A stretch of 39,675 bases of DNA from the IMG/VR virus record IMGVR_UViG_3300034010_000197. The stretch is one strand, 5' to 3'. Positions within the stretch are counted from its first letter, which is position 1. Every line of letters begins with the position of its first letter. This DNA is from a virus. Of the stretch, positions 4,341-39,675 are shown one piece after another. The notes below the pieces were generated by a model. It saw only the letters and a program-made list of their open reading frames with translations, ran no database searches and was not told the DNA's origin. The position numbers and the translations under genes are program-made.

Positions 4341-5187
4341 TACTGAGACAACCGTTTCTGAAGCGATAGTAACTAATACCGTAGCTCCTGAAGCACCAGC
4401 TGTTGCACAAAATGCAACAGTTCAAGCACAACAAGTAACACCAGATGTAGGAGCGCCAAGTCTATTTGATTCATTAAGCGATGAGTTAAAACAGTTTGCA
4501 AACCTAAAAAATTTCAAGGATGTAAACGAGCTTGCTAAAAGCTATATGCACGCACAATCCTTAATAGGTAAGAGAATTCAGGAGTTATCTCCAGAAGATA
4601 TAAAACATATTAACTTCCTTAAGGGTGCACCAAAGAGTCATGAAGAGTACGCACTACCAGCAGAGCTTCCTAATGATGTTGTTGATTGGTACAAGAAAAC
4701 CGCACATGATGCAGGATTAAGCCAAGAGCAGGCCAAGAAAGTAGTTGACAAATATATCGAATTAAATAGAGACTTTGCAGCTAAGCAAGAAGAGCAGATG
4801 AAAATCCAAACTACTAACTGGGCTAATGAATTAAAGGCTGAGTTTGGTAATGCATTTGATAACAGGATACAGGTTGCTAAACGTGCCGTAGAAAATTTCG
4901 GTGGTCAGGAATTAAAAGATATCCTTAATCAAACAGGTTTAGGAAGTCATCCAGTAGTAGTAAAAATGTTTGCTAAGATTGGTGAAAGCTTACTAGAAGA
5001 TAGTCTAATTCAAAGTGATTATGAGAAAGTTATAGGGTTAACTCCAGCTGATGCTAAAAATACTTTGAATACTAAACTATTAGATAACGATTTTAGAGGT
5101 GCTTTGTACTCCGCTACACATCCAGCTCACAAGGCTGCAGTAGCAGAATATGAAAGATTATTGAGTGCGATGCATCCCAAAGGATAA
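4312..5187 (+). CDS. Scaffolding protein (T7 gp9-like by position and composition)
   Basis: 291 aa, acidic, helix-rich and Lys/Glu/Ala/Gln-rich, directly upstream of the capsid gene. GGGGA SD before the ATG at 4312. Confidence 0.65.
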   Translation: MMDSNQTISNTETTVSEAIVTNTVAPEAPAVAQNATVQAQQVTPDVGAPSLFDSLSDELKQFANLKNFKDVNELAKSYMHAQSLIGKRIQELSPEDIKHINFLKGAPKSHEEYALPAELPNDVVDWYKKTAHDAGLSQEQAKKVVDKYIELNRDFAAKQEEQMKIQTTNWANELKAEFGNAFDNRIQVAKRAVENFGGQELKDILNQTGLGSHPVVVKMFAKIGESLLEDSLIQSDYEKVIGLTPADAKNTLNTKLLDNDFRGALYSATHPAHKAAVAEYERLLSAMHPKG

Positions 5188-6199: not shown

Positions 6200-6727
6200 A
6201 TGCCAATCGGAACAGTTAAATCAGTAAACGTAACAAACATAGAAGCCAGTCCAACTAGTTTGTTGTGGAAGAAAAAAGGTGAAGTTAAGCTTATAGATAG
6301 AATATCTTTAGCTACCACCGCAATGGACGACGTGGGCGATATAATATTGATGGGCCCAGTAAGATCTGATGCTATCCTAGTAGAACTAGCGTTCTATAAC
6401 GATGCATTGGCAGCTTCTGGTCTAGCATATAATATCGGTCTATACTACTCAGGTATAGGTGGAAACCAAGCAGAACTTGGTAGAACATCTGGAACTGTAA
6501 TAGACGCAGACTGCATAGGAACCGCAGTAGCCTTCAGCACCGCACGTGTTGTACCAGGCTTTGTAGGTTTCGAAGCACGCGACATTGTTGACATAACAAA
6601 AGAGTTATGGGAAGTTGGTGGACTAGCATCTGATCCAGGTGGACTATTCTACATCGGCTTGACATGCTCTACCGTAGCTACTACACCAGCTGCTGGAGAC
6701 ATTGTTATGGTGGCTGAAACACTATAA
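6200..6727 (+). CDS. Hypothetical head protein (possible decoration or minor capsid protein)
   Basis: 175-aa ORF with a GGAG SD, immediately after the capsid gene and before a GC-rich hairpin. The function is inferred from position only. Confidence 0.4.
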   Translation: MPIGTVKSVNVTNIEASPTSLLWKKKGEVKLIDRISLATTAMDDVGDIILMGPVRSDAILVELAFYNDALAASGLAYNIGLYYSGIGGNQAELGRTSGTVIDADCIGTAVAFSTARVVPGFVGFEARDIVDITKELWEVGGLASDPGGLFYIGLTCSTVATTPAAGDIVMVAETL

Positions 6728-7376: not shown

Positions 7377-10010
7377 ATGGCAATTGTAAATTACATTCAG
7401 GCTAGCTTTGCTGCCGGAGTACTAACACCTAAACTAGCAGGACGTACTGATCTATCTAAATACAAGACAGGATTAGCATCATTACATAACTTTCTAGTAT
7501 CACCATATGGATGTGTGTTTAGAAGGCCTGGGACACGCTTTGTAGAGCCAACAATAAGTACCAGTAATATATCCCGCCTAGTAAGATTTGAATACTCTAA
7601 CGAGCAAGCTTATCAGATAGAATTTTCTGCAGGTAAGATCAGATTCTATAAAGACCAAGGTCAGATCTTAAGAAGTAGAGGTATAACTAACGGAACATTT
7701 ACTTCAGGTATTTCAGGATGGACATCCAATAATGCTGGTACGGGAACTATTTCATGGGATGCTGGTAACCAAAGATTAAGTTTAAATGGTGGTGGCGGTG
7801 CCAACTATGCTCGCGCCTATCAAGCAGTTGCTAATATAGGCTTGGGTACATTTACTATAACAATGGACGTAGTCACATCTACAATAACTTATAGAGTAGG
7901 AACTTCTGTAGGCGGATCGTCCTTAGCTACAGGAACCCTAACTGCTGGTACTGGAAAAACATTTAACTTCACTGTTACTGCAAACTCTACCGTATATATA
8001 GAATTTGAATGCGCTTCTACAGCAGGTATAGATAACATTGTTTTAAACACAGGTAATATCTACGAAATAGATATACCATATACCAATAGTGAAATAAACG
8101 ATTTAAGATTTGCACAATCTTTCGACACACTGTATATTACACATAGGTCTTACGTACCAAGACAACTTCAAAGACTTGGACATGATAACTGGGTACTATC
8201 AACTGTATTATTTATTGAGCCTCCTTATCTAGATGAAAATACATCAGATACGACAATAACACCAAGTGCTACGACTGGATCCGTAACTGTAACAGCCTCA
8301 TCTGCTATATTTGCTTCAACTGATGTTGGTAGGGCTATCCGATATAAATCCGGACCAGATAGATCTGATGTAACCAATTATACTGGAACTGGTACACAAA
8401 CCTACTTTGATATTCCCTTTTACCCACAAGGACCTAGCGATCTAGTAGTAAGTTTTATAGAAAGTTCAGGCGCTCGTACTGCCAAAACCTATACATCTGG
8501 AGCTCCGGGTGCTGGTCAATTTACTATAACTAATGGTCAGATTCGTACTGGCGATACGGCCTCATCATCACAACGTGTTGAGATATCTCCGGCATATGCT
8601 GGATCCGGAGAGTGGGGATGGATGAAAATAACCGCATATACATCATCTACACAAGTTACAGCCCTGGTACAAAAAGACTTAGCTGGTACTAATGCATCCA
8701 CAGAATGGAGGTTAGGTGCTTGGTCTGAGACTACAGGGTACCCACGAGTTGTAGTATTCCATGAACAAAGACTATACTTTGCTAATACAGAAAATCAACC
8801 ACAGACATTCTGGGGCTCGGCAATTGCTGACTACACTAATTTCCAACCAGATAATGTTTTGTATAAAGGTGCTATTGATAACGATACCTCAGTATCCTTT
8901 ACATTAGCCGCAAATAACTCACAGGCAATAAACTGGTTAGCTTCTAAGGGAGCATTAATAATAGGTACAAGTAACGCTGTATTCTCTGCTAAGGGAAGTA
9001 GTGGATCTATAACGGCATCTAACGTATCAGTTAAAAAAGAAGCCGATATACCGACAGCATTTACACAGGTCGCAGAAACTTATAATGAAATTATATTTGT
9101 TGAGAGCTTGGGGCAACGCGTCTACTCTGTATTTTACTCTTTCCAATTAGACGGTTATGACGTACAAGAACTAACACTACTATCAGATCATTTAGGTAAG
9201 ATAAGCCCAATATTAGAAATTACCTACCAACCTACCTCTAAGATATTGTGGGCTAGACGTGAGGACGGAACTCTATTGAGTTGTACCTATATCCGTAACC
9301 AAGAGGTTATTGGATGGGCTACTCACAGCATAGGGGGCACTGATTCTGATGTACAATCAATATCAGTTATCCCAGGAGCTACATATAGTGAGTTGTGGAT
9401 GGTTGTAAATAGATCTGGCATGCCATCTGGATTCAGTAGAACTATTGAGTTTATGACACAGGAGTTTGACAACGAAGAAAAAGAAGATGCTATATTCCTA
9501 GACTGCTCCTTAACTTATAACGGCACATCATCTACATCTATCAGTAACCTTGATCACGTAGCCTCTGCTGAAGTATCTGTCTTAGTAAATGGCTCTGTCC
9601 ATCCTAATGTAACAGTTAGCTCCGGTGGTGTGGCTACATTAAGTATTGGTGCAACTAAAGCTACATTCGGATTTGGATATGAGTCATATTTAGAAACTAT
9701 GAGTATAGAAGCTGGATCTAAAATAGGATCTGCACAGGGTAGTATAAGTAGAATATCAGAAGTTAGCATACGTTTCTTTGAAACTATAGGCGCTAAAGTA
9801 GGCTTCGATTCTAACTCAATAGACATCATACAGTTTAGAGAATCCAATGATTTAATGAATACATCTCCAGATCTATATAGTGGATTTAAAATAATTAAAT
9901 TTAACTCTGGATTTAACCCAGAATATAAGGTATACTTAAAGCAAGATCAGCCGTTACCAATTACGGTATTAAATATTGTATTTAAGGCCCAGATATCAGA
10001 TGCACAGTGA
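7377..10010 (+). CDS. Tail tubular protein B / nozzle, T7 gp12-like, with an inserted lectin-like domain
   Basis: 877 aa. N-terminus FAAGVLTPKLAGRTDLSKYKTGLASLHNFLVSPYGCVFRRPGTRFV resembles nozzle ('stabilisation protein') N-termini. Follows the gp11-like gene. Confidence 0.7.
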   Translation: MAIVNYIQASFAAGVLTPKLAGRTDLSKYKTGLASLHNFLVSPYGCVFRRPGTRFVEPTISTSNISRLVRFEYSNEQAYQIEFSAGKIRFYKDQGQILRSRGITNGTFTSGISGWTSNNAGTGTISWDAGNQRLSLNGGGGANYARAYQAVANIGLGTFTITMDVVTSTITYRVGTSVGGSSLATGTLTAGTGKTFNFTVTANSTVYIEFECASTAGIDNIVLNTGNIYEIDIPYTNSEINDLRFAQSFDTLYITHRSYVPRQLQRLGHDNWVLSTVLFIEPPYLDENTSDTTITPSATTGSVTVTASSAIFASTDVGRAIRYKSGPDRSDVTNYTGTGTQTYFDIPFYPQGPSDLVVSFIESSGARTAKTYTSGAPGAGQFTITNGQIRTGDTASSSQRVEISPAYAGSGEWGWMKITAYTSSTQVTALVQKDLAGTNASTEWRLGAWSETTGYPRVVVFHEQRLYFANTENQPQTFWGSAIADYTNFQPDNVLYKGAIDNDTSVSFTLAANNSQAINWLASKGALIIGTSNAVFSAKGSSGSITASNVSVKKEADIPTAFTQVAETYNEIIFVESLGQRVYSVFYSFQLDGYDVQELTLLSDHLGKISPILEITYQPTSKILWARREDGTLLSCTYIRNQEVIGWATHSIGGTDSDVQSISVIPGATYSELWMVVNRSGMPSGFSRTIEFMTQEFDNEEKEDAIFLDCSLTYNGTSSTSISNLDHVASAEVSVLVNGSVHPNVTVSSGGVATLSIGATKATFGFGYESYLETMSIEAGSKIGSAQGSISRISEVSIRFFETIGAKVGFDSNSIDIIQFRESNDLMNTSPDLYSGFKIIKFNSGFNPEYKVYLKQDQPLPITVLNIVFKAQISDAQ

Positions 10011-13146: not shown

Positions 13147-16100
13147 TGTCAGTAATTGATAGTGTTACAAATTTTTTTACTACAGATTACGAAAGGGCTT
13201 TAAATAATTCTGTCAGTACTACGGCTGGAAGCGTATCATATGAACAGATGTTACAATCTATGGTACCTCCTACAATGCCTACTACCACAGAGAATCTAGA
13301 GCAAGGTAAGTGGGATACATTCACATCTAGAGCTGCACGTCAGGTAAACACTGACATTGGTGGATTGATGAATTTTGCATACGAGTACTTTGCAAAAGAA
13401 CCTAATTACAACGTATTTAAAGATCCAGAATTTACCTCACAAAGCCCAGAATTCCAAGTTAAATATGCAAGGAATCTAATGGACTCACCTAATGCACAGT
13501 ACACTCGTGGATCTATACAGAAGGCTAAAGAAACTGAAGAGCTAATGGCTAAAACCTCTGAGAATTTCTATACAGGGATAGCTGGGGATATGGTAGGTTC
13601 GTTATTTAATGTAAGTAACTTACTAGGGTTCAGAGCTACATTGGCTAATGTACCACGTATAGTAAATGCTGCTAGAGTATCTGGGGTTGCTACGGGTGCT
13701 GTTGCAATACAGGAGTTAGGCCGTCAGCAAGAAGATATTACAGTATCTGATCAAGAAGTAGCTATGAATGTCGGATCTACTATGGCATTGGGTGCATTTC
13801 TTGGATATTTAGGCTCACCGTCTATGAGTCCAAAGTTTACTCAAAATGCTAAAACTATTTTAAATCCAAACGCCCCTCTTAAAGCTGAGACTTTAGAGGA
13901 TGTACTTGCGGCTGGTGGTAATGCTGGAGCTGCGCGAGTAGCTACTGAAGAGGGCTATAACTTAGCTATGACAAACTCAGTATTTAAAAAACTAGCTGAG
14001 GTATCTGATATAACTGGTGCCGAACTACGTGGACTCCAGTCTCCATCAAAACAGATGAACTATTATACAAACCTATTTACTAGTCATAACTATCTAATTG
14101 AGCGTAACCTAAAGGGTGAGGCGTCTCCTATAAGCTTAGTTAATATGATTGATAGTGAGTTCAAACTTAAATTTAATCCATTAAGAACAAATCTAGATAC
14201 TGCATACGCCGGATTTAAAAAGGAAGGTGGTAAACTAAACCAAGACGAGTTTTTGAATGAGGCATTCGAAGTAATGGCTGGAGTTAAACAGACATCATCT
14301 AGAGAAGTATCTGATGCCGCACGTAATATGCGTAACTACTTCGACACTTTTGCACAAAGAATATCTAGTGTAGATCCAACATTTAAGCCAAGACAGAACT
14401 ACATACCAGGTATATTTGATAGAAGATCTGTAATAAAAAACCAAGCAGAATTGCGTAAAGATATAACTAACGAATTACTTGAGGTGTTACGTAGGGAAAA
14501 TGCTACAGTTAGCACATCTAAGATAGGCAAGGGAGTTAAGGCAGATAAATCCATAAATAAAGAACTAATACCAGCGGATATAGAAGACCCTGTATTTGCG
14601 GAAGCAGTTAACGCCATTTATCAAAAGATAGCACTAGATTCAGCAGGAAACACGTTTTCTCCAGCTCCTAAATCATGGACTGCCAAAAACTTAAAATCTC
14701 GTTATTTAAACTTTAGCAACGAATTCTATAATAAATATAGAAGTAAGGATGTAATGCACATCTTTAATAATTATGGTAGGCAAGCATCTAGGGATATAAA
14801 CTTTCAGAAATATCTCGGCGTGAAAGATCCTTATAAAATCATAGATAATGTGAAAGACGATTATTCAAAGTTATTACAAGATGTTGAAAAACGTACAGAT
14901 ATATCAAATAGAAATGAATTAATAGAAAGTCTGCAAAAAAACTTAGAAAGAGATATTCTAGATGCAGATAGGCTAATAAGCTTAAGTACTGGTAAATTTA
15001 ACCAAGGTGCATCTGAGTTTACTAGAGACACAACCGCAGTCTTAAAAGCCCTAGTATATATGAGGACTATGGGTAAAGTTATATTCTCAATGGTACCTGA
15101 CTTAGTACGTGTAGCTACATCTAAACTAACTTCTGTAGGACTTGGTGATGATATACTACAAACATCTACTAAAGTAGCCGATGTATTTAAAGCCATCCCA
15201 GATAGGGATGTAGGTAGATTATTCGGTGTAGTCTCTGATAGGATTACCGGTGTCGCTAGATCATCTTTATTCTCAGAAGTAATTGATCTAAACGTACCTA
15301 CTAAAATAGAGCAGGGTACTAAATTTGCATCTAGTGTATTCTCTAGATTAAACCTAATGGATCCACTAAACAATATAACGCGTACTGCAATAGCTGAGGA
15401 CGTAAGTAGAAAGGTTCTTAAGTACTCAAGGGATTTGATCGATGGTAAGTTAGTTAAAGGATCTTCGGAATATTTGGAATTATCAAAACTTGGTATAGAC
15501 AGCAAGCTTGCTAAAAAAATTATAAATAGCTTTGACACACATCAAGAAGTTACTGAGTTTGGTGGTAAGAAAGTATTAACCACAGGTATTGATAGCTGGG
15601 ATCCAAACGTATCGGCACCATTTATAGCTGCTGTACAAAGAGCTGTAGATAACACAATCATTGTACCTACTCCAGGAGCTAAACCATTCTGGACGCAAAC
15701 TCCTTGGGGAAGTGTGATATCTCAGTTAAAAGGATTCAGCTTCATCTCTTTAAACAAATATCTATTACCTGCCATGCAGAACATGGCTGGGGTTAATCCT
15801 AAAGAGTCTATGAAGGCAATGAGTGTTATACTAGCTGACTTACTAGTAGCCTCGCAGGTAGCCATGCTACAAGATTGGAGTGGCGGTAGGGAAGTTAACT
15901 ATACACCAGAGGCTTTATTAGCCAGTGCCTTGACAAAGAACTCCACATTTGCTATACTAGGGTTTGGATTTGATGCAGCTGGTATGGCCGGATTACACCC
16001 CGATCAAGTACTTGCAGATAAGCCTTCCTATTATCACAATGGGTCGGATTATGTTAAAGGAATGGCGGGAATGTTACTTGGACCATCAGCTAGATATTCG

Positions 16101-22392: not shown

Positions 22393-22686
22393 TTATACTG
22401 CCTCCTTATTAAGTTCGTCTTCTAATAAAGCTAGTGCTAGGACTAAGCTGCAGGCTGCGTGTGCTATATGGTTTAAGCCGGACTCATCATCCAATTTACC
22501 TACATGTAGATATTTGTACGTATGTCTTAACGATGCTTCAATAAAGTCTTTTGGATCTCCCTGCTTCCAGCATTGATCATCTCCATATTTACTTATACCA
22601 AACTCTCTAACTTTAGATATAGCTTTTAAGGCCTGATATGGAATCAGGCTTAATCTCTCTTTACCCTGTACATCTTTAACTGTCAT
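22393..22686 (-). CDS. dATP/dGTP pyrophosphohydrolase-domain protein (phage dNTP-PPase N-terminal domain family)
   Basis: 97 aa. GKERLSLIPYQALKAISKVREFGISKYG...W...ASLRHTYKYL...DDESGLNHIAHAACSLVLAL fits the family pattern (K.R..L.P..AL..v..v..fG..KYG..NW......RH......D.ESG..HlaH.a.n). Confidence 0.5.
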   Translation of the reverse strand: MTVKDVQGKERLSLIPYQALKAISKVREFGISKYGDDQCWKQGDPKDFIEASLRHTYKYLHVGKLDDESGLNHIAHAACSLVLALALLEDELNKEAV

Positions 22687-25987: not shown

Positions 25988-26174
25988 AAATTTTACCAGC
26001 TAACTTACGTGCTCTTATAGATAGTACTTTAGATCTTTCCATCAATAGTTCTACATCTATGATTGCACTTGGGTTATCCTCATTTATAGCTCTAGATGCT
26101 CGTATTGCATCATCGACTGTTGTTTTCAACTCTGAGAGTAAAGTCTCTAGTGAGTATTGTTTAACTGTTTTCAT
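25977..26174 (-). CDS. Hypothetical protein
   Basis: 65 aa, helical, and coupled on both sides. Confidence 0.45.
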   Translation of the reverse strand: MKTVKQYSLETLLSELKTTVDDAIRASRAINEDNPSAIIDVELLMERSKVLSIRARKLAGKIYVE

Positions 26175-26557
26175 TTTATTCTAACTGTACGATTCTCTAT
26201 CTCGCCAGTTTCCCTATCAATTATTATTGCTTCGGCTATTAGGCTTCCCATATAATCGTATATGTGTTCGAATACAATGTCAATATCAAAATCTCTGCAG
26301 CTATATACGTCCATCATTAGTAAGTTTTCCTTATCCCATATATGATATGCTATATGTGACGTAGCTAGGTTTACAGATCCGGTTAATCCTTCGTTTCCTT
26401 CCTCGGATACATATACTGATCTGGCTGGAGTTACTTGTACCATTCCTATTTTCTCTATAAGGGATACCATGAATGTATTTCCTTGTGATTCAGATGTTAT
26501 AGGTAAGGTTACTTTAGCCTTTATTACTAAGTGTTTGTGTATTGGTTTGAATGCCAT
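26171..26557 (-). CDS. AdoMetDC-fold (SpeH-like, pyruvoyl-dependent) decarboxylase homologue
   Basis: 128 aa. GLTGSVNLATSHIAYHIWDKENLLMMDVYSCRDFD aligns with the prokaryotic SpeH core GVSGvvviSESHltIHTWPE....iDlftCG. The processing Ser-His is kept, but the preceding Glu is Thr. Confidence 0.6.
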   Translation of the reverse strand: MAFKPIHKHLVIKAKVTLPITSESQGNTFMVSLIEKIGMVQVTPARSVYVSEEGNEGLTGSVNLATSHIAYHIWDKENLLMMDVYSCRDFDIDIVFEHIYDYMGSLIAEAIIIDRETGEIENRTVRIK

Positions 26558-29132: not shown

Positions 29133-29717
29133 CTATAATATTTTTACTCTGTTATGTCCTATTCTCTCACGAATCTCAGTAGATGTCAAGATAATATCCA
29201 TACCATTAATGTATGCGAACTTCTGTTCTTCTGTGAGTGCTTTACGTGCTGATGTACTATTTAGTAAGTACTTGTTAAATGCTGTATTAAATTTAGGCTC
29301 AGTTACTAATAGCCCATCCCTATCTGCTATACGTGGGGTGTGGAATAGAACCACTGCTGGACTATTTATGTATATATGATCTGCGTGAGCTAGTATGATT
29401 GCCCCGGCAGACATTACATATTTAGGTACAATGATATCGAAGCTTCCTGTAATGCTTCTCAGTAGAGCAATTACATCTACCATAGATTCTAATTCTCCGC
29501 CATAAGTAGTTAGATTAATGCAGGGTTTGGAAACCTTTCCCAACAGCTGTTTCTTTACACTATCTACCATTTGCTGGTTTACCTCACCATTATATATTAC
29601 ACATGAATTAGCATCGATAGGCTCTGGCTCGGCGTATTGATAAGCAGTATAAATCATTGATGTGGATATTGCCACTGCGCTTACTAATACTATTGCTTGT
29701 TTGAATATTGTATTCAT
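29133..29717 (-). CDS. Membrane-anchored or secreted ClpP/SppA-fold serine protease homologue
   Basis: 194 aa. N-terminal hydrophobic segment AIVLVSAVAISTSMIYTAY. ClpP-like core INLTTYGGELES...VMSAGAIILAHADHIYI...VVLFHTP, with candidate Ser in MSAG and His in FHT. Confidence 0.55.
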   Translation of the reverse strand: MNTIFKQAIVLVSAVAISTSMIYTAYQYAEPEPIDANSCVIYNGEVNQQMVDSVKKQLLGKVSKPCINLTTYGGELESMVDVIALLRSITGSFDIIVPKYVMSAGAIILAHADHIYINSPAVVLFHTPRIADRDGLLVTEPKFNTAFNKYLLNSTSARKALTEEQKFAYINGMDIILTSTEIRERIGHNRVKIL

Positions 29718-31340: not shown

Positions 31341-31931
31341 CTACCTCTTTTTCATTATTGAATCTACTAGGCCGTAATTAACTGATGCCTCTGCATCCAA
31401 CCATAAATCTCTTGTAGTATCTTTTAGGATCTTACCAAGTGTGTGACCAGTATTATCAGCTAATATTTGCATAAGTTTTTTGTTAAGTTTTTTAGTGTGT
31501 TCGAACGATGCTTCCATATCCTGTACGTTACCACGCGTTCCTGCTGAAACCTGATGTAGCATGAACTGAGCATTTGGTAATATAAACCTTTTACCTAATG
31601 TTCCTGAGGAAGCTATTACTGAGCCCATAGAGCATGCGTATCCAGTTACAACTGTAACTACGTCTGGCTTGATTAGATTCATCGTATCTACTATAGATGT
31701 TCCTGATACTACGCATCCACCAGGTGAGTTAATGTACATATAAATATCAGCATTCTTATCTTCTGATTCTAATAATAATAACTGGGCTATTATATCATCA
31801 GACATTAAATGATTAACTTCGCCATTAACAAATATGATGCGTTCCCTGAGTAATCTGGAATAAACATCCATGGCTTTGACACCCTTGTCGCTTACTTCGT
31901 ATGTTGTTGGTATAATTCTATTGTTGGTCAT
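31341..31931 (-). CDS. clpP: ATP-dependent Clp protease proteolytic subunit ClpP
   Basis: Colinear with bacterial ClpP: RIIFVNGEV...IYMYINSPGG...GYACSMGSVI (Ser), FMLHQV (His), TRDLWLDAEASVNYGLVD (Asp). ATG at 31931 preferred over the TTG at 31949. Confidence 0.9.
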   Translation of the reverse strand: MTNNRIIPTTYEVSDKGVKAMDVYSRLLRERIIFVNGEVNHLMSDDIIAQLLLLESEDKNADIYMYINSPGGCVVSGTSIVDTMNLIKPDVVTVVTGYACSMGSVIASSGTLGKRFILPNAQFMLHQVSAGTRGNVQDMEASFEHTKKLNKKLMQILADNTGHTLGKILKDTTRDLWLDAEASVNYGLVDSIMKKR

Positions 31932-32592
31932 CGTTATCCTCATGATCAATTACTTTAGGTTCTTCTTTGGCTGGTATACTGTATTGTATCACATAATTCT
32001 TAACATCTTCGTTCTTGGTTTCTATACTAGCCTTACGTGGTGTTTGGTATACAGATAGTTCCTTAGCTAATTTCATTGCTGTACTTAAGTCTAAGTTAAG
32101 CTTACTACCATTTTTCAATATCAATTGTTGGAACTTAACTGCATCCCCATCAGCTTCATCAAATATTGCATTGAGTGTGGCCTGCTGATCTTTAGCTATC
32201 TTAACAGTTTTAGGTCTACCATTAGCATTTCCTGAAACACCTTTAACGAACTTACCTCTATTACGTATTGAGGTAAGACCTTCTATATCTTTTATAGTTA
32301 TAGATCCAGGCTCTGCCTCATAACGTATATCATTACCTTTTTCTTTATTCTGTGCGTGAGTTATAACCTGTAAGTTAGCTGGTACGTGTAGTCCGCATAC
32401 TATTGGATTATTAACTGGTATTATATGATCTACTTCATGCTGTACGCCTGTTGTTGCGCTTAGATGTTTTGCTAAATCATAGAACTTATTAATATGTGTC
32501 TTTTGTTCTACTGTTAGCCAGGAAGGGGTAGCTGATTTAAGGCTATCCCTACGTCCGGCGCATTTATCTTTGTTTTTATTTATGTCTGCCAT
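31918..32592 (-). CDS. HNH endonuclease fused to a C-terminal SGNxNGRPK (DUF5681/TerS-like) domain
   Basis: HNH core HEVDHIIPVNNPIVCGLHVPANLQVITHAQNKEKGN. C-terminal half FVKGVSGNANGRPKTVK followed by a helical region. Confidence 0.75.
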   Translation of the reverse strand: MADINKNKDKCAGRRDSLKSATPSWLTVEQKTHINKFYDLAKHLSATTGVQHEVDHIIPVNNPIVCGLHVPANLQVITHAQNKEKGNDIRYEAEPGSITIKDIEGLTSIRNRGKFVKGVSGNANGRPKTVKIAKDQQATLNAIFDEADGDAVKFQQLILKNGSKLNLDLSTAMKLAKELSVYQTPRKASIETKNEDVKNYVIQYSIPAKEEPKVIDHEDNDDQQ

Positions 32593-33825: not shown

Positions 33826-33925
33826 GTAAAATCTTTAGTAGGCTCCTGTGCTAGGTGGAACCTAGCTAGATTCAATATTCGTAAAAAGTCAAGTTATTTT
33901 TATACAATAATTATGTTACAAACCC

Positions 33926-33955
33926 TTGACAAGGCTATTTTAAACTTGCTATTAT
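33926..33955 (+). promoter_or_regulatory. Strong sigma70-type promoter A (rightward operon)
   Basis: cTTGACA (33926-31), 18 nt, TGcTATTAT (33947-55). The architecture is identical to promoter B at 39240..39269. Confidence 0.7.
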
Positions 33956-33967
33956 ACTAGAAGCTAA

Positions 33968-34118
33968 CTGTAGTAGACTCAAGATACGAGTTATACTAAT
34001 AGATAATAAGAGTATCGATGTTATCACATCTTACACGAGTTCGATTAAAATACTCTCTACTCTAGAACGATAAACACAATGAAACTAATAGTTACTCTAT
34101 ACACGGTCTAATAGAGGT
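33968..34118 (+). repeat. Conserved promoter-proximal leader element, copy A (candidate cis-acting RNA)
   Basis: Aligns by hand with the reverse complement of 39092..39233. The 37-nt core 34011-34047 has one difference. The 22-nt block 34064-34085 has one difference. A terminal ACGGTCTA(A)TAGAG block is also shared. Confidence 0.7.
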
Positions 34119-34172
34119 ACTCATAAACTAAAATAATAATGCTTAAGGATATCTGTATCTATTATATTTATC

Positions 34173-34201: not shown

Positions 34202-34225
34202 TAAAGTATATAATAGAGGTGTGTT

Positions 34226-34498
34226 ATGACAGATAAATTTTCTATGATAGATAGGATGAATGAAGCCTTATCATTAAGGGACCACGAAGGTTTCTTTGTA
34301 CTATTAGATAAATACATAACAACCTACTACGATTACGGCTATGTATCAGATATGCTTGGTAATAGTACTAGTGCAGAAGTGCTTAGTAATATGGTTAGAA
34401 GCGGTAAAATAACACTAAGGATGCTAAATGTAGTATTACGTACGTTAAAAATCAAACTACGTCAAGAATCCCCACGCAATTATGAGGAGGTAGAGTAA
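34226..34498 (+). CDS. Hypothetical protein, possible HTH regulator
   Basis: 90 aa. AGAGG SD. MLGNSTSAEVLSNMVRSGKITLRMLNVVLRTL is weakly HTH-like. Confidence 0.4.
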   Translation: MTDKFSMIDRMNEALSLRDHEGFFVLLDKYITTYYDYGYVSDMLGNSTSAEVLSNMVRSGKITLRMLNVVLRTLKIKLRQESPRNYEEVE

Positions 34499-35088
34499 TG
34501 CAGATATCTTCAGCCGGAATTAGATTAATCATGGACTTAGAGGGAATCAGTAACAAACGGTACAAAGATAGTGCTGGTCTAGATACTATAGGTGTAGGTC
34601 ATCTTATATTGGATAATGATCCTAACTTGCATAAAGTTACTGGTATATCAAATAGTGATGAGGTTAAATCCCTTACTGACGCACAGATAATGAGGCTATT
34701 AGAGTTGGATTTGGTAGGTTTCATTGCAGAGATTGATAGGGTAGGAGTTATATTTACTCAAAGCCAGTTTGACGCACTAGTAAGCCTTGTTTTTAATATA
34801 GGCGTAGGAAACTTTAGAGGATCTACACTATTTAAATTATTATCTAGGCATAAAGGATCTAGGATACCAGATAGTAGAGTAGAGGATATATCACAAGAGT
34901 TTGGTAGATGGAGATATGCTGGTAAGAAAGAGATTAGAGGTCTTCTAGTAAGAAGATTGATAGAAACATTTATTTTCCTTGACAAAGCTAACGAGGATGC
35001 TATAATAGAAGGTGTAAGAGCTTCAGATATGGATTATATAATCTCCGTCTTTGAGGATTACAAAGTAAACAGAGCTCAACGAATTTAG
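34498..35088 (+). CDS. Endolysin, GH24 lysozyme (T4/lambda type)
   Basis: E15-x8-D24-x5-T30 catalytic spacing in LIMDLEGISNKRYKDSAGLDTIGVGH. QFDALVSLVFNIGVGNF. No N-terminal TM or SAR segment. Confidence 0.85.
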   Translation: MQISSAGIRLIMDLEGISNKRYKDSAGLDTIGVGHLILDNDPNLHKVTGISNSDEVKSLTDAQIMRLLELDLVGFIAEIDRVGVIFTQSQFDALVSLVFNIGVGNFRGSTLFKLLSRHKGSRIPDSRVEDISQEFGRWRYAGKKEIRGLLVRRLIETFIFLDKANEDAIIEGVRASDMDYIISVFEDYKVNRAQRI

Positions 35089-35097
35089 CGGGTAACT

Positions 35098-36105
35098 ATG
35101 ATTAACAATTTATACAACATCAGAGACTTAGATCCCGACGTTAAGGTTTATCTAGAACCACAGTTTAAACGTACACGTAAACCATCAGATTTGGTAGCAG
35201 AATTAGATAAGTTTGTTATTGGTCAAGATGCAGCTAAAAAGGCATTAGCTATTGCTATGGTTAACCATGAGGTTATAACTGAACACAATAGAAGGATTAA
35301 GAAGTCTGAAACTAGATTAAAGAAAACTAACTTAATGCTAGTAGGACCATCTGGTACAGGTAAGACATACTTATTAGAGGTTATAGGGCGTACATTAGGA
35401 AAGGACGTAATGGCCGTAGATATATCATCTTACACTCAAGCAGGCTATGTTGGTAGAGATCTAGACTCAATTATAACTGAGGCATGTGCTAGGTGCGACG
35501 ATAATCCCGAAAGAGTGGAAAACATGATCATCTTCTTAGATGAGGTTGATAAGCTATCAGACCAAGAGGGCGTAGGTAAGGTCGGTACATTGGCCGTACA
35601 ACAACAACTACTAACCCTTATTGAGGGTCAAGAGGAGTATAATGTAACCAATGATAAAGGACGCAATACCGGCTTCCAAGTCGACACCCGTAACATCCTT
35701 TGGGTACTAGGTGGCGCATTCACTGCGTACAGAGAATCAGCTATTAAGAAACTTAAGAACCCTACCACAATAGGCTTTGCTACGGAAACCAAAGAACCAG
35801 AAGAGTTTGTGTTCGATCAACAACAAGCTATTAAAGCTGGATTACTAAGGGAATTAGTAGGGCGTATAGGGCAAGTTATAGAGTTACATGACTTAAGCAG
35901 AGAAGAGTGCTACAGAATTATGGTAGAACCAGTAGATTCTATAGTTAATCAGTATAAGATATTAGGGGAATTAAGAGGATTAAATCTAACACTAACCGAG
36001 AAGGAGATCTGGGATATAGTGGACGAAGCAATCCGCTTAAAGCTTGGTGCACGTGGATTAAGGACACTGGCAGACAAGTTAATGAAAGATCGTATGTATA
36101 TATAA
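35098..36105 (+). CDS. clpX: ClpX-like AAA+ unfoldase lacking the N-terminal zinc-binding domain
   Basis: Colinear with ClpX: LDKFVIGQDAAKKALAIAMVNH, Walker A GPSGTGKT, pore-1 loop AGYVG, Walker B IIFLDEVDK, QVDTRNILWVLGGAF, IGF loop TTIGFAT, sensor-2 GARGLR. There is no Cys-cluster N-domain. Confidence 0.85.
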   Translation: MINNLYNIRDLDPDVKVYLEPQFKRTRKPSDLVAELDKFVIGQDAAKKALAIAMVNHEVITEHNRRIKKSETRLKKTNLMLVGPSGTGKTYLLEVIGRTLGKDVMAVDISSYTQAGYVGRDLDSIITEACARCDDNPERVENMIIFLDEVDKLSDQEGVGKVGTLAVQQQLLTLIEGQEEYNVTNDKGRNTGFQVDTRNILWVLGGAFTAYRESAIKKLKNPTTIGFATETKEPEEFVFDQQQAIKAGLLRELVGRIGQVIELHDLSREECYRIMVEPVDSIVNQYKILGELRGLNLTLTEKEIWDIVDEAIRLKLGARGLRTLADKLMKDRMYI

Positions 36106-36119
36106 GGAGGATTTAATAT

Positions 36120-36419
36120 ATGGCAGATCGTAAATTTATATCAAGATTGTTCCTAAACAAGGCAAAGGACTCAGGTAAAGTATATCTGAAAGGTACAATT
36201 AAGATAGCTAAAGAAGAACTAAAGGCCTTCCTACAGAGTGATGGATCAGTAGAGATACCAGTATTCGGGCACACATTCGAAGGTAAAGACAAACAAGACA
36301 ATGTATATAAAGCATATAATTTAGAGGTAGTATATGAAAGTAATTCTAAAGACGTTAAAGGTTTTAAAAAAGAGAATACTAAAACTTTTAAAAACAATTC
36401 TCTAGATACACCATTCTAA
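36120..36419 (+). CDS. Small Lys-rich protein co-transcribed with clpX (possible ssDNA-binding or partner protein)
   Basis: 99 aa. AAGGAGG SD. The C-terminus ...NNSLDTPF resembles the SSB-type D-x-P-F tip. A terminator follows. Confidence 0.4.
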   Translation: MADRKFISRLFLNKAKDSGKVYLKGTIKIAKEELKAFLQSDGSVEIPVFGHTFEGKDKQDNVYKAYNLEVVYESNSKDVKGFKKENTKTFKNNSLDTPF

Positions 36420-36452
36420 GATAAACATAAGACAATAATAGTTATACAAAGA

Positions 36453-36484
36453 GGGGGCTAGCAATAGTCCCCTTAAATATTTTA
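36453..36484 (+). terminator. Rho-independent terminator
   Basis: GGGGGCTA (36453-60), GCAA tetraloop, TAGTCCCC (36465-72). The stem is 8 bp including one G-U pair and is followed by ttaaatatttt. Confidence 0.7.
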
Positions 36485-36544
36485 CTGGACTTTACTTAAG
36501 AAATGTAGTACTATTATATTATAGATAAGAAGTTGAGGTACACA

Positions 36545-36715
36545 ATGGCCTACAAATTCAAAGTAAGAGACGAGTCTCCGGAAGATATGGATACCAAAGA
36601 TATCTTACAGTATCTAGATAGAATGAGAACTAACTTTAAAGACAGTACAGATAAAGATGAACTTAAATCATCGCTAGAATTCTTAAAGAATATGTTAGGA
36701 GAGGATAATAAATGA
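36545..36715 (+). CDS. Hypothetical acidic protein
   Basis: ATG at 36545 (MAYKFKVRDESPED...) with a GAGGT SD 6 nt upstream. The track ORF begins at an upstream TTG. Confidence 0.5.
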   Translation: MAYKFKVRDESPEDMDTKDILQYLDRMRTNFKDSTDKDELKSSLEFLKNMLGEDNK

Positions 36716-37266
36716 CAATAAGAATATTTAAATCTATAGAGTATATGGATAGAGATGGGGAGCAGCCAAGCTTTCATTTGTACCAAGCAAAGAAGGTTAG
36801 GTACAACCCAGAGTCAACAGTTATACAGGCATTTGATAGGGAACCTATACCTCTAGTTGCATTATCTAAGGATGACCTACTACAGTTAGTTAATGATATC
36901 AAATATGCCCTTGAGAATGAGCCTATAGTTAATGAAAAGCTACTATGTGATACTCTAGATGTAGACTACCAATCCCCATCTGATATAGAATCTATACGTG
37001 TATTAAATGAGGTAACGTCAGTTATAGTGAAAGAAGTGCCACAAATAACACATACTAAGTTAGATGCTAAGGATGATGATAACATAACTATACAAGAAGA
37101 AATATGTCGGCAAATGGTTAAGGACATATCTGATACACTTGATATAGCACGTCTAATGCGCAACGAAGACCATAGTATGGATTATATATACTATGAACTG
37201 ATTGACGATCTAAACCAACTAATAAATGAGCTAGCTGACGAGTTAGAAGGAGGAGCAAATGAATAA
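36712..37266 (+). CDS. Hypothetical acidic protein
   Basis: 184 aa, Asp/Glu-rich, with an ATGA overlap with the upstream gene. Confidence 0.5.
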   Translation: MTIRIFKSIEYMDRDGEQPSFHLYQAKKVRYNPESTVIQAFDREPIPLVALSKDDLLQLVNDIKYALENEPIVNEKLLCDTLDVDYQSPSDIESIRVLNEVTSVIVKEVPQITHTKLDAKDDDNITIQEEICRQMVKDISDTLDIARLMRNEDHSMDYIYYELIDDLNQLINELADELEGGANE

Positions 37267-37450
37267 TGACCTAAAGAAAGTAGCATTAGCTATCAAAAAA
37301 GACCCAGAAATAGTAACTAGAGTGGTACAATCATTATATGAAGACTTTGTAATACATGGATCACACGAACGACTAGGGAAAGAGATGATGCAATTCGGTC
37401 TAATTATACGTCAAGCAGGACTTATAAACAATAATGGAGGTGTACAATGA
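37259..37450 (+). CDS. Hypothetical protein
   Basis: 63 aa. GGAGGAG SD inside the upstream gene's end. Confidence 0.45.
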   Translation: MNNDLKKVALAIKKDPEIVTRVVQSLYEDFVIHGSHERLGKEMMQFGLIIRQAGLINNNGGVQ

Positions 37451-37716
37451 ACATGGCAGTATTACCACAATCAGTTGAGGATGTGTTGTTCGCCACACGA
37501 GGCGATATGACAATGGAAGAGTTTGCTGCAGAGTTAGGTGTCAAACTTAAGACATTAGAAGGTGTAATGTACGATGGTAAGAAAGTACCAGCAGCATTAG
37601 ACAGGGCATACTGCAATTACGTAGATGTATTCCCAGGTTATCTATTATGGGTAGAACAAACCTACAAGAGGGCATTAAAGTCCTATCTAGACTCTTACAA
37701 TGAAACATGGAGATAA
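37447..37716 (+). CDS. Hypothetical protein, possible HTH DNA-binding
   Basis: 89 aa. MTMEEFAAELGVKLKTLEGVMYDGKKVP is HTH-like. ATGA overlap and GGAGG SD. Confidence 0.4.
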   Translation: MNMAVLPQSVEDVLFATRGDMTMEEFAAELGVKLKTLEGVMYDGKKVPAALDRAYCNYVDVFPGYLLWVEQTYKRALKSYLDSYNETWR

Positions 37717-37721
37717 GTAGA

Positions 37722-37859
37722 ATGAGATACAGGATCAGATCTAAACGTACATTAGCAGCAATAGCCTATAATGAGTATCTAGTACACGATGATATTAATA
37801 AACTAATCGCAGCCCTAGAGCTAATAGAATTAGGTGAGTTTGAAGATGAACATAATTGA
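37722..37859 (+). CDS. Hypothetical 45-aa protein (not in the ORF track)
   Basis: MRYRIRSKRTLAAIAYNEYLVHDDINKLIAALELIELGEFEDEHN. Fills the gap between neighbouring genes. Confidence 0.35.
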   Translation: MRYRIRSKRTLAAIAYNEYLVHDDINKLIAALELIELGEFEDEHN

Positions 37860-38184
37860 GACAGAAGAGCAGTATAACCAGGTACTCAGGCGTATTGATG
37901 ATATATGGGACAATACTGACAACTATGATGAACTAGATAGATTATGTGCACTAGTTGAGGAATATGAAGCAAAACACTATAATATGGGAGATCCAACGAT
38001 GTCATATGATTACCTTCTATATCTAGAGAGGAGCTTGGATACAATAGAGAAGCAAGACGCCTTCATTGAGGCCTCATTTGAGGACTATAAGCGTCACCTA
38101 AGCCTAACCTACCTGATATCAGAGCTAGAATTCATAAATAAGATACGTAATACACATGCGAGGGCCAAAGATGGTACAGATTAA
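37846..38184 (+). CDS. Hypothetical protein
   Basis: ATG at 37846 (MNIIETEEQYNQ...) preferred over the GTG at 37834. Confidence 0.45.
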   Translation: MNIIETEEQYNQVLRRIDDIWDNTDNYDELDRLCALVEEYEAKHYNMGDPTMSYDYLLYLERSLDTIEKQDAFIEASFEDYKRHLSLTYLISELEFINKIRNTHARAKDGTD

Positions 38185-38599
38185 TATAACTAAGGCAGAT
38201 GGCGTAGATATACCTTCATATGCAACATTATATAGCTCAGGCTTGGATTTACAAGCCAATATAACTCAATCTATTATACTACAACCACTAGAACGTGTAA
38301 TTATACCAACTGGGATATCAATTGAGCTACCAATAGGATACGAAGCTCAGGTTAGACCAAGGTCAGGACTAGCAGCTAAGTATGGAATTACGGCACACTT
38401 TGGCACAATCGACTCAGACTATAGGGGTGAGATTGGAGTTATACTAATTAACATGAGTAAGGATGAGTTCGAGGTTAAGCCTCTAATGCGTATAGCACAG
38501 CTTGTAATAGCTAAGTATGAGTATGCTGATCTACATGTGGTTGAATCATTGAACGGAACCACAAGAGCTAGTAATGGCTTTGGATCAACTGGACTGTAG
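38171..38599 (+). CDS. dut: dUTP pyrophosphatase (canonical trimeric dUTPase)
   Basis: All five motifs are present: SSGLDL, RPRSGLA, GTIDSDYRGEIG, RIAQLVI, and C-terminal RASNGFGSTG. Start MVQINITK with a GAGGG SD. Confidence 0.9.
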   Translation: MVQINITKADGVDIPSYATLYSSGLDLQANITQSIILQPLERVIIPTGISIELPIGYEAQVRPRSGLAAKYGITAHFGTIDSDYRGEIGVILINMSKDEFEVKPLMRIAQLVIAKYEYADLHVVESLNGTTRASNGFGSTGL

Positions 38600-38855
38600 T
38601 AATAACAGTATGAATAACAGAGTTCACGTGTAGGATGAACCACAGTATACACACTACACTGTATTGTAGTCCTACATACCACAATGTGTTAATAATCAAG
38701 GAGATAGGCTGATGTTGGTGTGTACTATAGTGTACTACTGATCGGTGTCCCATAGCCCCTAGCTACTACAGTCTCCAAAAACAGGAAAAACCCTATCAAA
38801 CCCAGGCAGAATCTATCTGTGCGGGATTTGGATCTATATATAGTGTTTGCGGAAA

Positions 38856-38882
38856 GGGGTATACCCAAAATATCTGTACCCC
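38856..38882 (-). terminator. Weak candidate terminator of the short leftward unit
   Basis: GGGGTA (38856-61) pairs with TACCCC (38877-82). On the minus strand the stem is followed only by TTT. Confidence 0.25.
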
Positions 38883-38931
38883 CTCGGTGTGGCGTTAAAG
38901 TTGATGGTACTAACGGACAACAATATCGAAA

Positions 38932-39066
38932 TTATTTTTTATCAGCGGAATCACTAAGGTAGCTAACAAGGTCATTAAGATTGTCTCTAAGGTCAATCCT
39001 ATTGGATTCTTTCTCGAAGTCATCCATTATGATTAGTAAGTGAGCTAGAATTTGATCATCAGACAT
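38932..39066 (-). CDS. 44-aa acidic protein expressed from promoter B (not in the ORF track)
   Basis: MSDDQILAHLLIIMDDFEKESNRIDLRDNLNDLVSYLSDSADKK. AAGGA SD 6 nt upstream. It is the only ORF downstream of promoter B and its leader. Confidence 0.45.
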   Translation of the reverse strand: MSDDQILAHLLIIMDDFEKESNRIDLRDNLNDLVSYLSDSADKK

Positions 39067-39091
39067 AGCTATCCTTAAATTGTGAAGTATA

Positions 39092-39233
39092 CTCTATAGA
39101 CCGTTTAGTGAGTATCTTTATGTTTCATCGTGTTTATCGTTCTTGAGGAGAGGAGAGTCTAATCGAACTCGTGTAAGATGTGAGAACATCGATACTAGAA
39201 TTATCTAAAATTATAATCGTATCTTAATCTCAC
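39092..39233 (-). repeat. Conserved promoter-proximal leader element, copy B (inverted relative to copy A)
   Basis: Its reverse complement aligns with 33968..34118. The 37-nt core at 39160-39196 differs from copy A at one base. Confidence 0.7.
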
Positions 39234-39239
39234 TACAGT

Positions 39240-39269
39240 ATAATAGCAAAGTTAAATTGGTCATGTCAA
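39240..39269 (-). promoter_or_regulatory. Strong sigma70-type promoter B (leftward, faces promoter A's operon)
   Basis: On the minus strand: cTTGACA (39269-64), 18 nt, TGcTATTAT (-10 at 39245-40). The hexamers, spacing and flanking bases match promoter A. Confidence 0.7.
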
Positions 39270-39366
39270 GTAGTTTAACAAAAATTTAACATAACTATCA
39301 ATCACTAAATGTTACAAATTGTTACAATCAATGTAGTAGGGGGTTTCCACCCCACATAATAGAGTA

Positions 39367-39418: not shown

Positions 39419-39675
39419 ATGACAACTAAGATAATTAAGAGTCCATATCAACCTAGGCCATTACAAGCCGATCTACATAAGGACTTACGTAAATATAATG
39501 TGGTAGTTGCTCATCGTCGTTTCGGCAAGACATACTTCTGTATCAACGAGATGATCTTTAGAGCGCTACAGTGTCAGAAGAATAGACCGCAGTACGCCTA
39601 TGTTGCCCCAGAGAAAGCACAAGCTAAGAAGATTGTATGGGGTATAATGAAGGACAACACAGGCTTCCTGCCTGA
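39419..39675 (+). CDS. terL: Terminase large subunit, N-terminal part (continues at position 1 across the circular junction)
   Basis: ATG at 39419 after a GAGG SD: MTTKIIKSPYQPRPLQADLHKDLRKYNVVVAHRRFGKTYFC. Walker A is RRFGKT. It is in frame with ORF 17..1198 (offset 132 nt). Confidence 0.9.
   Translation, partial: MTTKIIKSPYQPRPLQADLHKDLRKYNVVVAHRRFGKTYFCINEMIFRALQCQKNRPQYAYVAPEKAQAKKIVWGIMKDNTGFLP
39535..39675. repeat. Second copy of the 141-bp terminal overlap
   Basis: Identical to 1..141 by direct comparison. Confidence 0.95.

Follow-up and report, generated by a model that had tools for sequence, protein, structure and literature searches.

Why should a small phage place two copies of one consensus promoter, each followed by much the same long untranslated leader, at either end of its early region so that they face one another? 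The question is raised by the uncultivated podovirus-type tailed phage recorded as IMG/VR entry IMGVR_UViG_3300034010_000197, whose sequence of 39,675 nucleotides (nt), hereafter the window, comes from freshwater samples. A preliminary description of this DNA had reported two near-identical promoters heading homologous leaders and had likened the leaders to putL and putR, the paired antitermination RNAs of phage HK022. The promoters, the leaders, the quoted conserved blocks and their coordinates are all correct in the sequence, and it is secure that an early control cassette, made up of a consensus promoter and a long untranslated leader, has been duplicated and sets two facing units under the same control. 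For the leader itself, our tentative first choice is a DNA-level early control region composed of tandem promoter elements and palindromic protein-binding sites. We rank this ahead of a neutral or gene-converted remnant, an unstructured RNA attenuator and a folded put-like RNA, in that order. The parts of the two copies, A and B, are as follows.

33926-33955, plus strand: P_A, a sigma-70 promoter with -35 element TTGACA (33926-31), an 18-nt spacer and extended -10 element TGcTATTAT (33947-55)
39240-39269, minus strand: P_B, the same promoter, with the -35 element at 39269-64 and the extended -10 element at 39248-40
33962-34117, plus strand: conserved part of leader A, about 155 nt; relative to copy B there is an 11-nt insertion at 33957-33967
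39091-39233, minus strand: leader B, about 143 nt, with the embedded motif, palindrome, core, tract with more C than G, and hairpin III
33992-34006, plus strand: embedded -10-like or initial-transcribed motif of copy A, TATACTAATAGATAA
39215-39201, minus strand: the embedded motif of copy B, TATAATTTTAGATAA
33983-34030, plus strand: two adjacent weak inverted repeats (-8.9 kcal/mol, z -1.6)
34017-34030, plus strand, and 39190-39177, minus strand: the second of these inverted repeats, GATGT-TATC-ACATC in copy A, and its counterpart in copy B
34011-34047, plus strand, and 39196-39160, minus strand: 37-nt core, 36/37 identical
34064-34085, plus strand: 22-nt conserved block AGAACGATAAACACAATGAAAC, which holds the ATG of a 10-codon mini open reading frame (ORF) without a Shine-Dalgarno sequence
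34027-34104, plus strand, and 39184-39107, minus strand: G-poor 78-nt tract with more C than G, unstructured by prediction, with the pyrimidine run ACTCTCTACTCT in copy A
34090-34121, plus strand: weak hairpin III (CTCTAT / ATAGAG) around the conserved loop ACGGTCTA (-8.0 kcal/mol, z -2.0)
39118-39086, minus strand: hairpin III of copy B, pairing in a shifted register

Inverted with respect to each other, the two modules (33926-34117 on the plus strand and 39269-39091 on the minus strand) are ~81% identical. A repeat search of the genome returned them as two pairs of arms, each 82% identical, one of 120 nt (33991-34110 / 39097-39216) and one of 34 nt at the promoters (33925-33958 / 39237-39270). 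BLASTN of copy against copy gave 77% identity over 193 nt (E 4e-36), and global alignment from the -35 hexamer to TAGAG gave 183 columns with 35 differences (81% identity). Five indels separate the copies in 190 nt; the one of 11 nt lies between the promoter and the conserved part and amounts to about one helical turn. The homology runs from the -35 hexamer to about +155, and beyond these limits the flanks are at noise level. Within it stands the 37-nt core, whose sole difference falls in the 4-nt centre of GATGT-N4-ACATC, as the preliminary description had it when placing this base in the loop of a GATGT/ACATC hairpin. An 18-mer of the core occurs 2 times in the window, with 0.03 occurrences expected. 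The third conserved block, the TAGAG block, is 14 nt long. Candidate homology upstream of the -35 hexamer was not significant (p = 0.41), and a possible relic in copy A of the copy-B ribosome-binding site, TTAAGGATAtCTgTaTCT, is collinear but was rejected at a local-alignment p of 0.21. As a separate observation, the 10-mer TAATAGAGGT is present twice in leader A, at 34109-34118 in the third conserved block and at 34211-34220 in the Shine-Dalgarno region of the gene that follows; CTCTAT (34095-34100) could pair with either, and copy B has no counterpart.

A sigma-70 promoter combines the -35 hexamer TTGACA and the -10 hexamer TATAAT across a spacer of 16-18 nt, optionally with an extended TG. 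Both promoters match this consensus at 11/12 positions plus the TG, and no other site in the genome comes within 2 mismatches of TTGACA-18-TGcTATTAT. The -35 and -10 hexamers and the TG motif are perfectly kept between the copies; the 15-nt part of the spacer is identical at 9/15 positions. From the spacing, transcription is predicted to start near 33962 for P_A and near 39233 for P_B; the full leaders measure 265 and 167 nt, in a tightly packed genome. P_A and P_B are convergent across a 5.3-kb early cassette that lies beside the terminase gene, and P_B diverges from that gene (start 39419, plus strand). Because no phage RNA polymerase was seen among the genes annotated in the genome, all phage transcription should depend on the host enzyme.

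The leaders do not code for a shared protein. No ORF is common to the copies in any of the six frames, which contain only mini-ORFs of 10 and 7 codons lacking a Shine-Dalgarno sequence, and the downstream proteins, of 90 and 44 amino acids (aa), bear no similarity to each other; on both points the preliminary description had been right. A single sense frame runs open through both copies, but it lacks a start codon and its changes are non-conservative, so that a protein-coding leader was rejected. Readings of the repeat as a transfer RNA or transfer-messenger RNA were also rejected, as was a trans-acting antisense target; conserved complementarity of at least 11 nt is absent elsewhere in the genome. 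Since the module is non-coding, is present in two inverted copies and precedes unrelated genes, any constraint on it acts on the nucleic acid itself.

The piece of the leader that other genomes support is promoter-like, and it is the only such piece. TATAMTWWTAGATAA, a pattern derived solely from the copies in the window, coincides exactly with the -10/+1 region of the two duplicated promoters in the relative L010 (TTGA..-N17-TGGTATACTTATAGATAAGAG, at 9161-9210 and 14029-14078), where ~0.03 chance matches were estimated over the relatives searched. A relaxed form finds 3 promoter-like intergenic sites in another relative, L016, one of which immediately precedes the terminase gene, and written as TATAMT-WW-TAGATAA the motif matches the promoter cores of both. 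Because of these matches, part of the leader counts as a core of promoter type, such as ordinarily serves the relatives, and it may act as a tandem start, near 34004 and 39203, or as a sigma-dependent pause element.

The two inverted repeats at 33983-34030 could be RNA hairpins I and II or operator-like palindromes in DNA. The first, GATAC...GTATC, is a 34-bp imperfect palindrome. In the second, a 14-bp palindrome, the one core difference occupies the 4-bp centre and fits a dimer operator as well as a hairpin loop. The operator array of a phage repressor would comprise repeated or palindromic sites common to the controlled promoters and a cognate DNA-binding protein; conserved palindromes are present here, and no repressor was identified. 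Sites matching GATGT-N4-ACATC with at most 1 mismatch number 6 in the genome, with 1.2 expected and 0/100 shuffles reaching 6; two are those of the leaders and the four others (7866, 8232, 11716 and 16388) lie within structural genes.

On the DNA-level reading, a duplication would have produced paralogous copies of one early control cassette at two facing units, here called A and B, both under the same host-RNA-polymerase control. The leader would act mainly as DNA or as short linear sites and not as folded RNA. The embedded -10-like motif behind P1, the consensus promoter, would provide a tandem start or a sigma-70-dependent pause, and GATGT-N4-ACATC and GATAC...GTATC, which follow it directly, would with the rest of the 37-nt core be putative regulator sites, used as operator or roadblock. 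With the same sites in both cassettes, a phage-specific regulator would switch both units together. Firing of P_B would, moreover, oppose read-through from unit A into the late (terminase) genes, and we infer, from the known interference between convergent promoters (PMC4889929, PMC5001618), that P_B might in this way shield the late operon. The lack of an RNA-structure signal, documented below, removes the main argument for an RNA device, and the one-turn indel, an analogous module in the relative L014 and the retention of long leaders in a packed genome also favour action at the DNA level. Similarity within the genome combined with turnover between genomes is what co-evolution with a genome-specific regulator would be expected to leave.

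Several points weigh against this reading. Sites 50-150 bp downstream of the start would be an unusual position for operators, and with two copies and no homologues action at the DNA level is not separable from action at the RNA level. The embedded motif in the window has no usable -35 element upstream, as read from the sequence. Long paralogous modules occur in only 2-3 of the relatives with enough sequence, few cases for a recurrent architecture. No regulator was identified: the product of the 90-aa first gene of unit A has no relatives (an ORFan) and no family match, and its structural model, a helical bundle (predicted local distance difference test score 77), gave no significant match in a fold search, the best being XRE-like with a template-modelling score of 0.44-0.47 and E ~6. 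Constraint on the leader is unproven in that its identity, 124/152, compared with 9/15 for the promoter spacer, gives a Fisher p of 0.08, and the mismatch pattern is compatible with uniform decay.

The element itself is confined to one lineage. It is absent from GenBank phages (blastn in distant and near modes), from IMG/VR (three core patterns) and from GTDB genomes (two patterns), and a 20-mer search of JGI metagenomes returned only the same phage (L009). An nhmmer profile built from the two copies gave no match below E 0.4, and none close to an early promoter, in ~1 Mb of sequence from about 90 relatives, covering 17 fetched loci and 80 IMG/VR terminase relatives. Searching with the 37-nt core, which the preliminary description had recommended as a route to homologues, thus led only to near-identical strains of the same phage. 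Since only such strains carry the element, covariation could not be tested; other metagenomes yielded four more assemblies of the phage, at 99.0-99.95% identity and with no useful variation. No close relatives of the ClpX-like protein or the terminase were found in IMG/VR, the lysozyme has no relative above 45% identity, and the nearest terminase relatives (79% in L004, 56% and 54%) are on short contigs without the repeat region.

What more distant relatives show is a similar place filled with a different sequence. L014, whose terminase is 52% identical, has its own unrelated inverted pair of ~170 nt (446-605 / 4352-4506, 74-85% identical), each consisting of a TTGACA-N17-TGTTATAGT promoter and a ~75-nt leader rich in ACTATAGT palindromes. 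The two copies face each other over a 3.8-kb early cassette alongside the terminase region, and promoters in the left arm are arranged in tandem with a spacing of 130 nt. L010 and L016 keep paralogues of the promoter plus initial region. In L006, arrays of (A)CTAGGGT(A) in both orientations (1730-1817 and 6205-6463) occupy intergenic sites analogous to those of copies A and B. Where long paralogous modules are present, their sequence is genome-specific and their place similar. Two further observations concern these loci. A GCGGGG...CCCCGC stem, with TTTGG after it, encloses the right copy in L014, and this copy may produce a short antisense RNA; the CTAGGGT arrays of L006 look like shared protein-binding sites.

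Known systems offer partial parallels. In lambda, one regulator set governs two early units, and lambdoid immunity regions are similar within genomes and turned over between them. The PL-OL-nutL and PR-OR-nutR regions, like the modules here, are inverted paralogous early regions with a promoter and nearby cis sites. In contrast to lambda, neither leader shows a boxA-like site, and the ORFs scanned gave no candidate for an N-like or CI/Cro-like protein; the conserved stretch follows the promoter instead of overlapping it, and the promoters are convergent, not divergent. Early promoter families such as T7 A1-A3, and the modules of L010, L016 and L014, likewise repeat host-type promoters with shared initial-transcribed sequence. 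The shared part, however, extends ~155 nt past the start here as against 15-20 nt in L010 and L016 and ~75 nt in L014, and downstream of the motif these modules have no sequence relation to the leaders of the phage. Two strong facing promoters also characterise coliphage 186 (pR/pL) and long-range interference in E. coli. Interference between convergent genes has been shown to extend to 3 kb (PMC4889929, PMC5001618), whereas the present promoters are 5.3 kb apart and copies of each other, and may interfere. The feature is real and lineage-restricted, and its general kind, that of paralogous early promoter regions, is known; its unusual points are the length of the shared leader and the convergent placement.

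Among the alternatives to a DNA-level control region, one that is possible, if somewhat less probable, is that the leader has no function of its own. The promoter and 5´ untranslated region would have been duplicated, or homogenised in patches by ERF/YqaJ recombination, with only the hexamers selected and the leader similarity a matter of shared ancestry still decaying. The phage does encode ERF and a YqaJ-like exonuclease. Shuffling of the mismatch positions gave p = 0.05 for the longest run containing no more than 1 mismatch (37), p = 0.15 for the longest perfect run (24) and p = 0.16 for the variance of run length, so that conservation in blocks rather than uniformly is only marginal. The preliminary description had argued that a mere segmental duplication would decay uniformly; that outcome cannot be rejected (p 0.05-0.16), and its claim that conservation acts on the RNA or DNA itself stands as far as the non-coding module and unrelated genes carry it, the constraint itself being unproven. 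The five indels, the non-significant difference between leader and spacer, the lack of a fold signal and the absence of the element from every relative, which makes it lineage-specific and possibly young, all fit a remnant as well. A divergence of 19% is, however, far older than the strain diversity (0.05-0.6% across five metagenomes), and after that time the -35 hexamer and +155 still mark sharp limits of the homology. Long functionless leaders would be unusual in a compact genome, and the match of the embedded motif to relatives' promoter cores also tells against a remnant.

It is doubtful that the leader is an unstructured RNA attenuator, in which a C-rich, G-poor stretch would load Rho (rut-like), given a host that has Rho, or bind a protein and so attenuate or time both units. 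In a rut region, untranslated RNA without structure extends over ~80 nt, and C is much more frequent than G. The 78-nt tract, with C/G of 2.3-2.4 (2.4 in copy A), lies at the same position in both copies, exceeds every sense-strand window of operon A and falls at about the 96th-98th percentile of the genome; YC dinucleotides number 14-16 per leader. The pyrimidine tract has diverged at many positions and is nevertheless CU-rich and G-free in both copies, and the leaders are untranslated and predicted to be unstructured. Against this, the composition test is unspecific in an AT-rich genome, and C makes up only 23-28% of the best windows. C is not most abundant where conservation is highest, in the 37-nt core and the 22-nt block, and comparative support is lacking. 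The suggestion of a protein-binding leader, a hedge in the preliminary description, may hold and is close to the reading that we prefer. Rather unlikely, in turn, is a new cis-acting element of the early transcript, unrelated to put or nut, which would act as RNA with little folding or as RNA and DNA together. Its reader would be RNA polymerase or a partner protein, and the leader would set elongation, attenuation or shut-off of both convergent immediate-early units, and L014-like relatives would carry functional analogues of different sequence.

A folded put-type RNA, or another structured riboregulator or small RNA in which the leader binds RNA polymerase or a factor and renders elongation resistant to terminators, is very improbable. 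put RNA suppresses downstream terminators and binds the beta' zinc-binding domain of RNA polymerase. It is ~70 nt long, forms two long stem-loops and binds RNA polymerase (PMC9378689). As with HK022 putL and putR, two related non-coding elements are found just downstream of two early sigma-70 promoters, the strongest of the window, in opposite orientations (PMC9378689); the leaders begin at P_A and P_B, as far as predicted transcription goes. A -10-like element early in the transcript, here at +18 to +36, is also reported for putL (PMC9378689), and unit A contains a terminator-like hairpin (36451-36474). The put promoters diverge, however, whereas those of the window converge, and one of the two units here is a single 44-aa ORF with nothing obvious downstream to antiterminate. 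No sequence or Rfam relation to put was found, and in place of two long stem-loops the copies have only common helices of 4-6 bp. A device that depends on geometry is also hard to reconcile with the 11-nt indel and with the unequal distances from leader to gene.

Folding lends this idea little. Leader A as a whole folds at -27.4 kcal/mol (z -0.30) and leader B at -23.9 kcal/mol (z +0.43), no better than dinucleotide shuffles. RNAalifold on the two copies gave -11.2 kcal/mol with helices of 4-5 bp, all invariant; on the global alignment, the consensus fold of -9.8 kcal/mol was like that of column shuffles (-8.5 +/- 2.9; z -0.46, p = 0.31). The MAFFT alignment of the two copies misplaces the 3´ hairpin. 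When short segments were folded, the same three small hairpins appeared in both copies, I and II together at -8.9 and -9.1 kcal/mol (z -1.6 and -1.4) and III at -8.0 and -5.5 kcal/mol (z -2.0 and -1.7), slightly better than shuffles, a faint signal. To argue from the position of the differences in loops is circular because the structure was chosen to fit both copies. The put paralogues differ by changes that preserve pairing. Here all pairs of hairpins I and II are invariant, the helices are AU-rich, and no compensatory change is unambiguous; whether hairpin III shows a U-A to A-U swap depends on how the two sequences, the only ones available, are aligned. Rfam gave no match at the gathering score over the whole window and, at E <= 10 in both regions, only chance-level matches to unrelated eukaryotic or viral families. 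The preliminary description had named both folding and an Rfam search as checks on its put-like RNA, and had counted missing conserved structure or covariation and absence from relatives against it. Neither conserved structure nor covariation was found, and all relatives found lack the element, so that by its own criteria this proposal is not supported. A nut-type site is not supported either. The boxA consensus is CGCTCTTA (GCTCTTTAACAA in rrn); neither leader holds a boxA-like site at <=1 or <=3 mismatches, counts genome-wide are at or below chance, and the 5-bp hairpin at 34017-34030 stands without a boxA partner. In a lambda-type site a boxB hairpin adjoins boxA, and an N-like, arginine-rich protein takes part.

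That the 190-bp inverted repeats are a recombination substrate for inverting the 5.3-kb cassette is hardly credible: the orientation, the phage's own recombinase genes and a divergent ClpP / lysozyme block that is flipped in L006 relative to the window would suit it, but 4/4 independent assemblies of the phage that extend across the cassette (L001, L002, L003 and the window) agree in its orientation, no invertase gene is present among the ORFs scanned, 81% identity is poor for homologous exchange, and the flipped block of L006 is not the segment between the repeats. If the leader is functional under the DNA-level reading or another, it would exemplify how small podoviruses without an RNA polymerase of their own coordinate early units, namely by copying a whole control cassette and setting one copy head-on to the early operon beside the late genes. 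The value of the case is mostly corrective, in that an intragenomic repeat behind consensus promoters does not by itself constitute evidence for a put-like RNA.

The units headed by the two cassettes are laid out as follows.

34226-38599, plus strand: transcription unit A, with the 90-aa ORFan, lysozyme, ClpX-like AAA ATPase, small ORFs and dUTPase
36451-36474, plus strand: terminator-like hairpin GAGGGGGCTAGCAATAGTCCCCTT in the middle of unit A, between a 99-aa ORF and the next ORF
38600-38931, no strand assigned: non-coding convergence zone of units A and B, ~330 nt, GC-richer, with a weak hairpin at 38853-38885
38932-39066, minus strand: unit B, a single 44-aa acidic ORF without a family match, running towards the 3´ end of unit A

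Given the hairpin at 36451-36474, the distal half of unit A would need read-through or a promoter of its own. A structured RNA or terminator in 38600-38935 was considered and rejected, there being no Rfam match and no fold signal; strain L001 has an indel at ~38668-38725, within the convergence zone.

The phage genome is a circular assembly with a unit of 39,534 bp, in which bases 1-141 equal 39535-39675 exactly, and the terminase gene wraps round the origin across the assembly junction. The 141-bp exact terminal direct repeat is most likely an overlap of the circular assembly, because 141 is a common largest k-mer and the ENA contigs of the phage are named k141_. Structural and packaging genes encode a Terminase_6N large terminase, a T7-like portal (Head-tail_con), Bbp19 and a Phage_capsid_2 capsid; replication and accessory genes encode a family-A DNA polymerase, DnaB-primase, ERF, YqaJ, ClpP, the ClpX-like ATPase, lysozyme and two dUTPase-like proteins. 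ClpP (31341-31949, minus strand), a second, distant ClpP/SDH-like protease (29133-29717, minus strand) and the ClpX-like AAA ATPase (35098-36105, plus strand) are thus all encoded by the phage, and the pair of ClpP and AAA protein is retained in the relatives L005, L006, L010 and L016. An S-adenosylmethionine (AdoMet) decarboxylase gene at 26171-26557 and a MazG-like gene at 22393-22686 accompany the two dUTPase-like genes. In L013 (60-125) and L008 (55-120, minus strand as read), whose terminases are 54-56% identical, a common GC-rich element of ~55 nt, TTGACGCCTTTAGCCGCGAGACG.CCTAAGGT.GGGA.CCCTTGTCATG, follows a terminator-like hairpin upstream of the terminase gene and may be a packaging or terminal site, or an RNA.

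Finally, unit A contains two further promoter-like sequences. A look-alike of P_A inside the dUTPase gene (38248-38284, plus strand), TTTACAAGCC...CTATTATACTACAA, is identical at 26/37 positions, including an 11-mer around the -10 element; it may be either a relic or a promoter internal to the gene, and nothing resembling the leader comes after it. The other, at 34979-35006 on the plus strand, matches the sigma-70 consensus at all 12/12 positions, carries an extended TG and lies within the 3´ end of the lysozyme gene, ~90 nt upstream of the ClpX-like ATPase gene.

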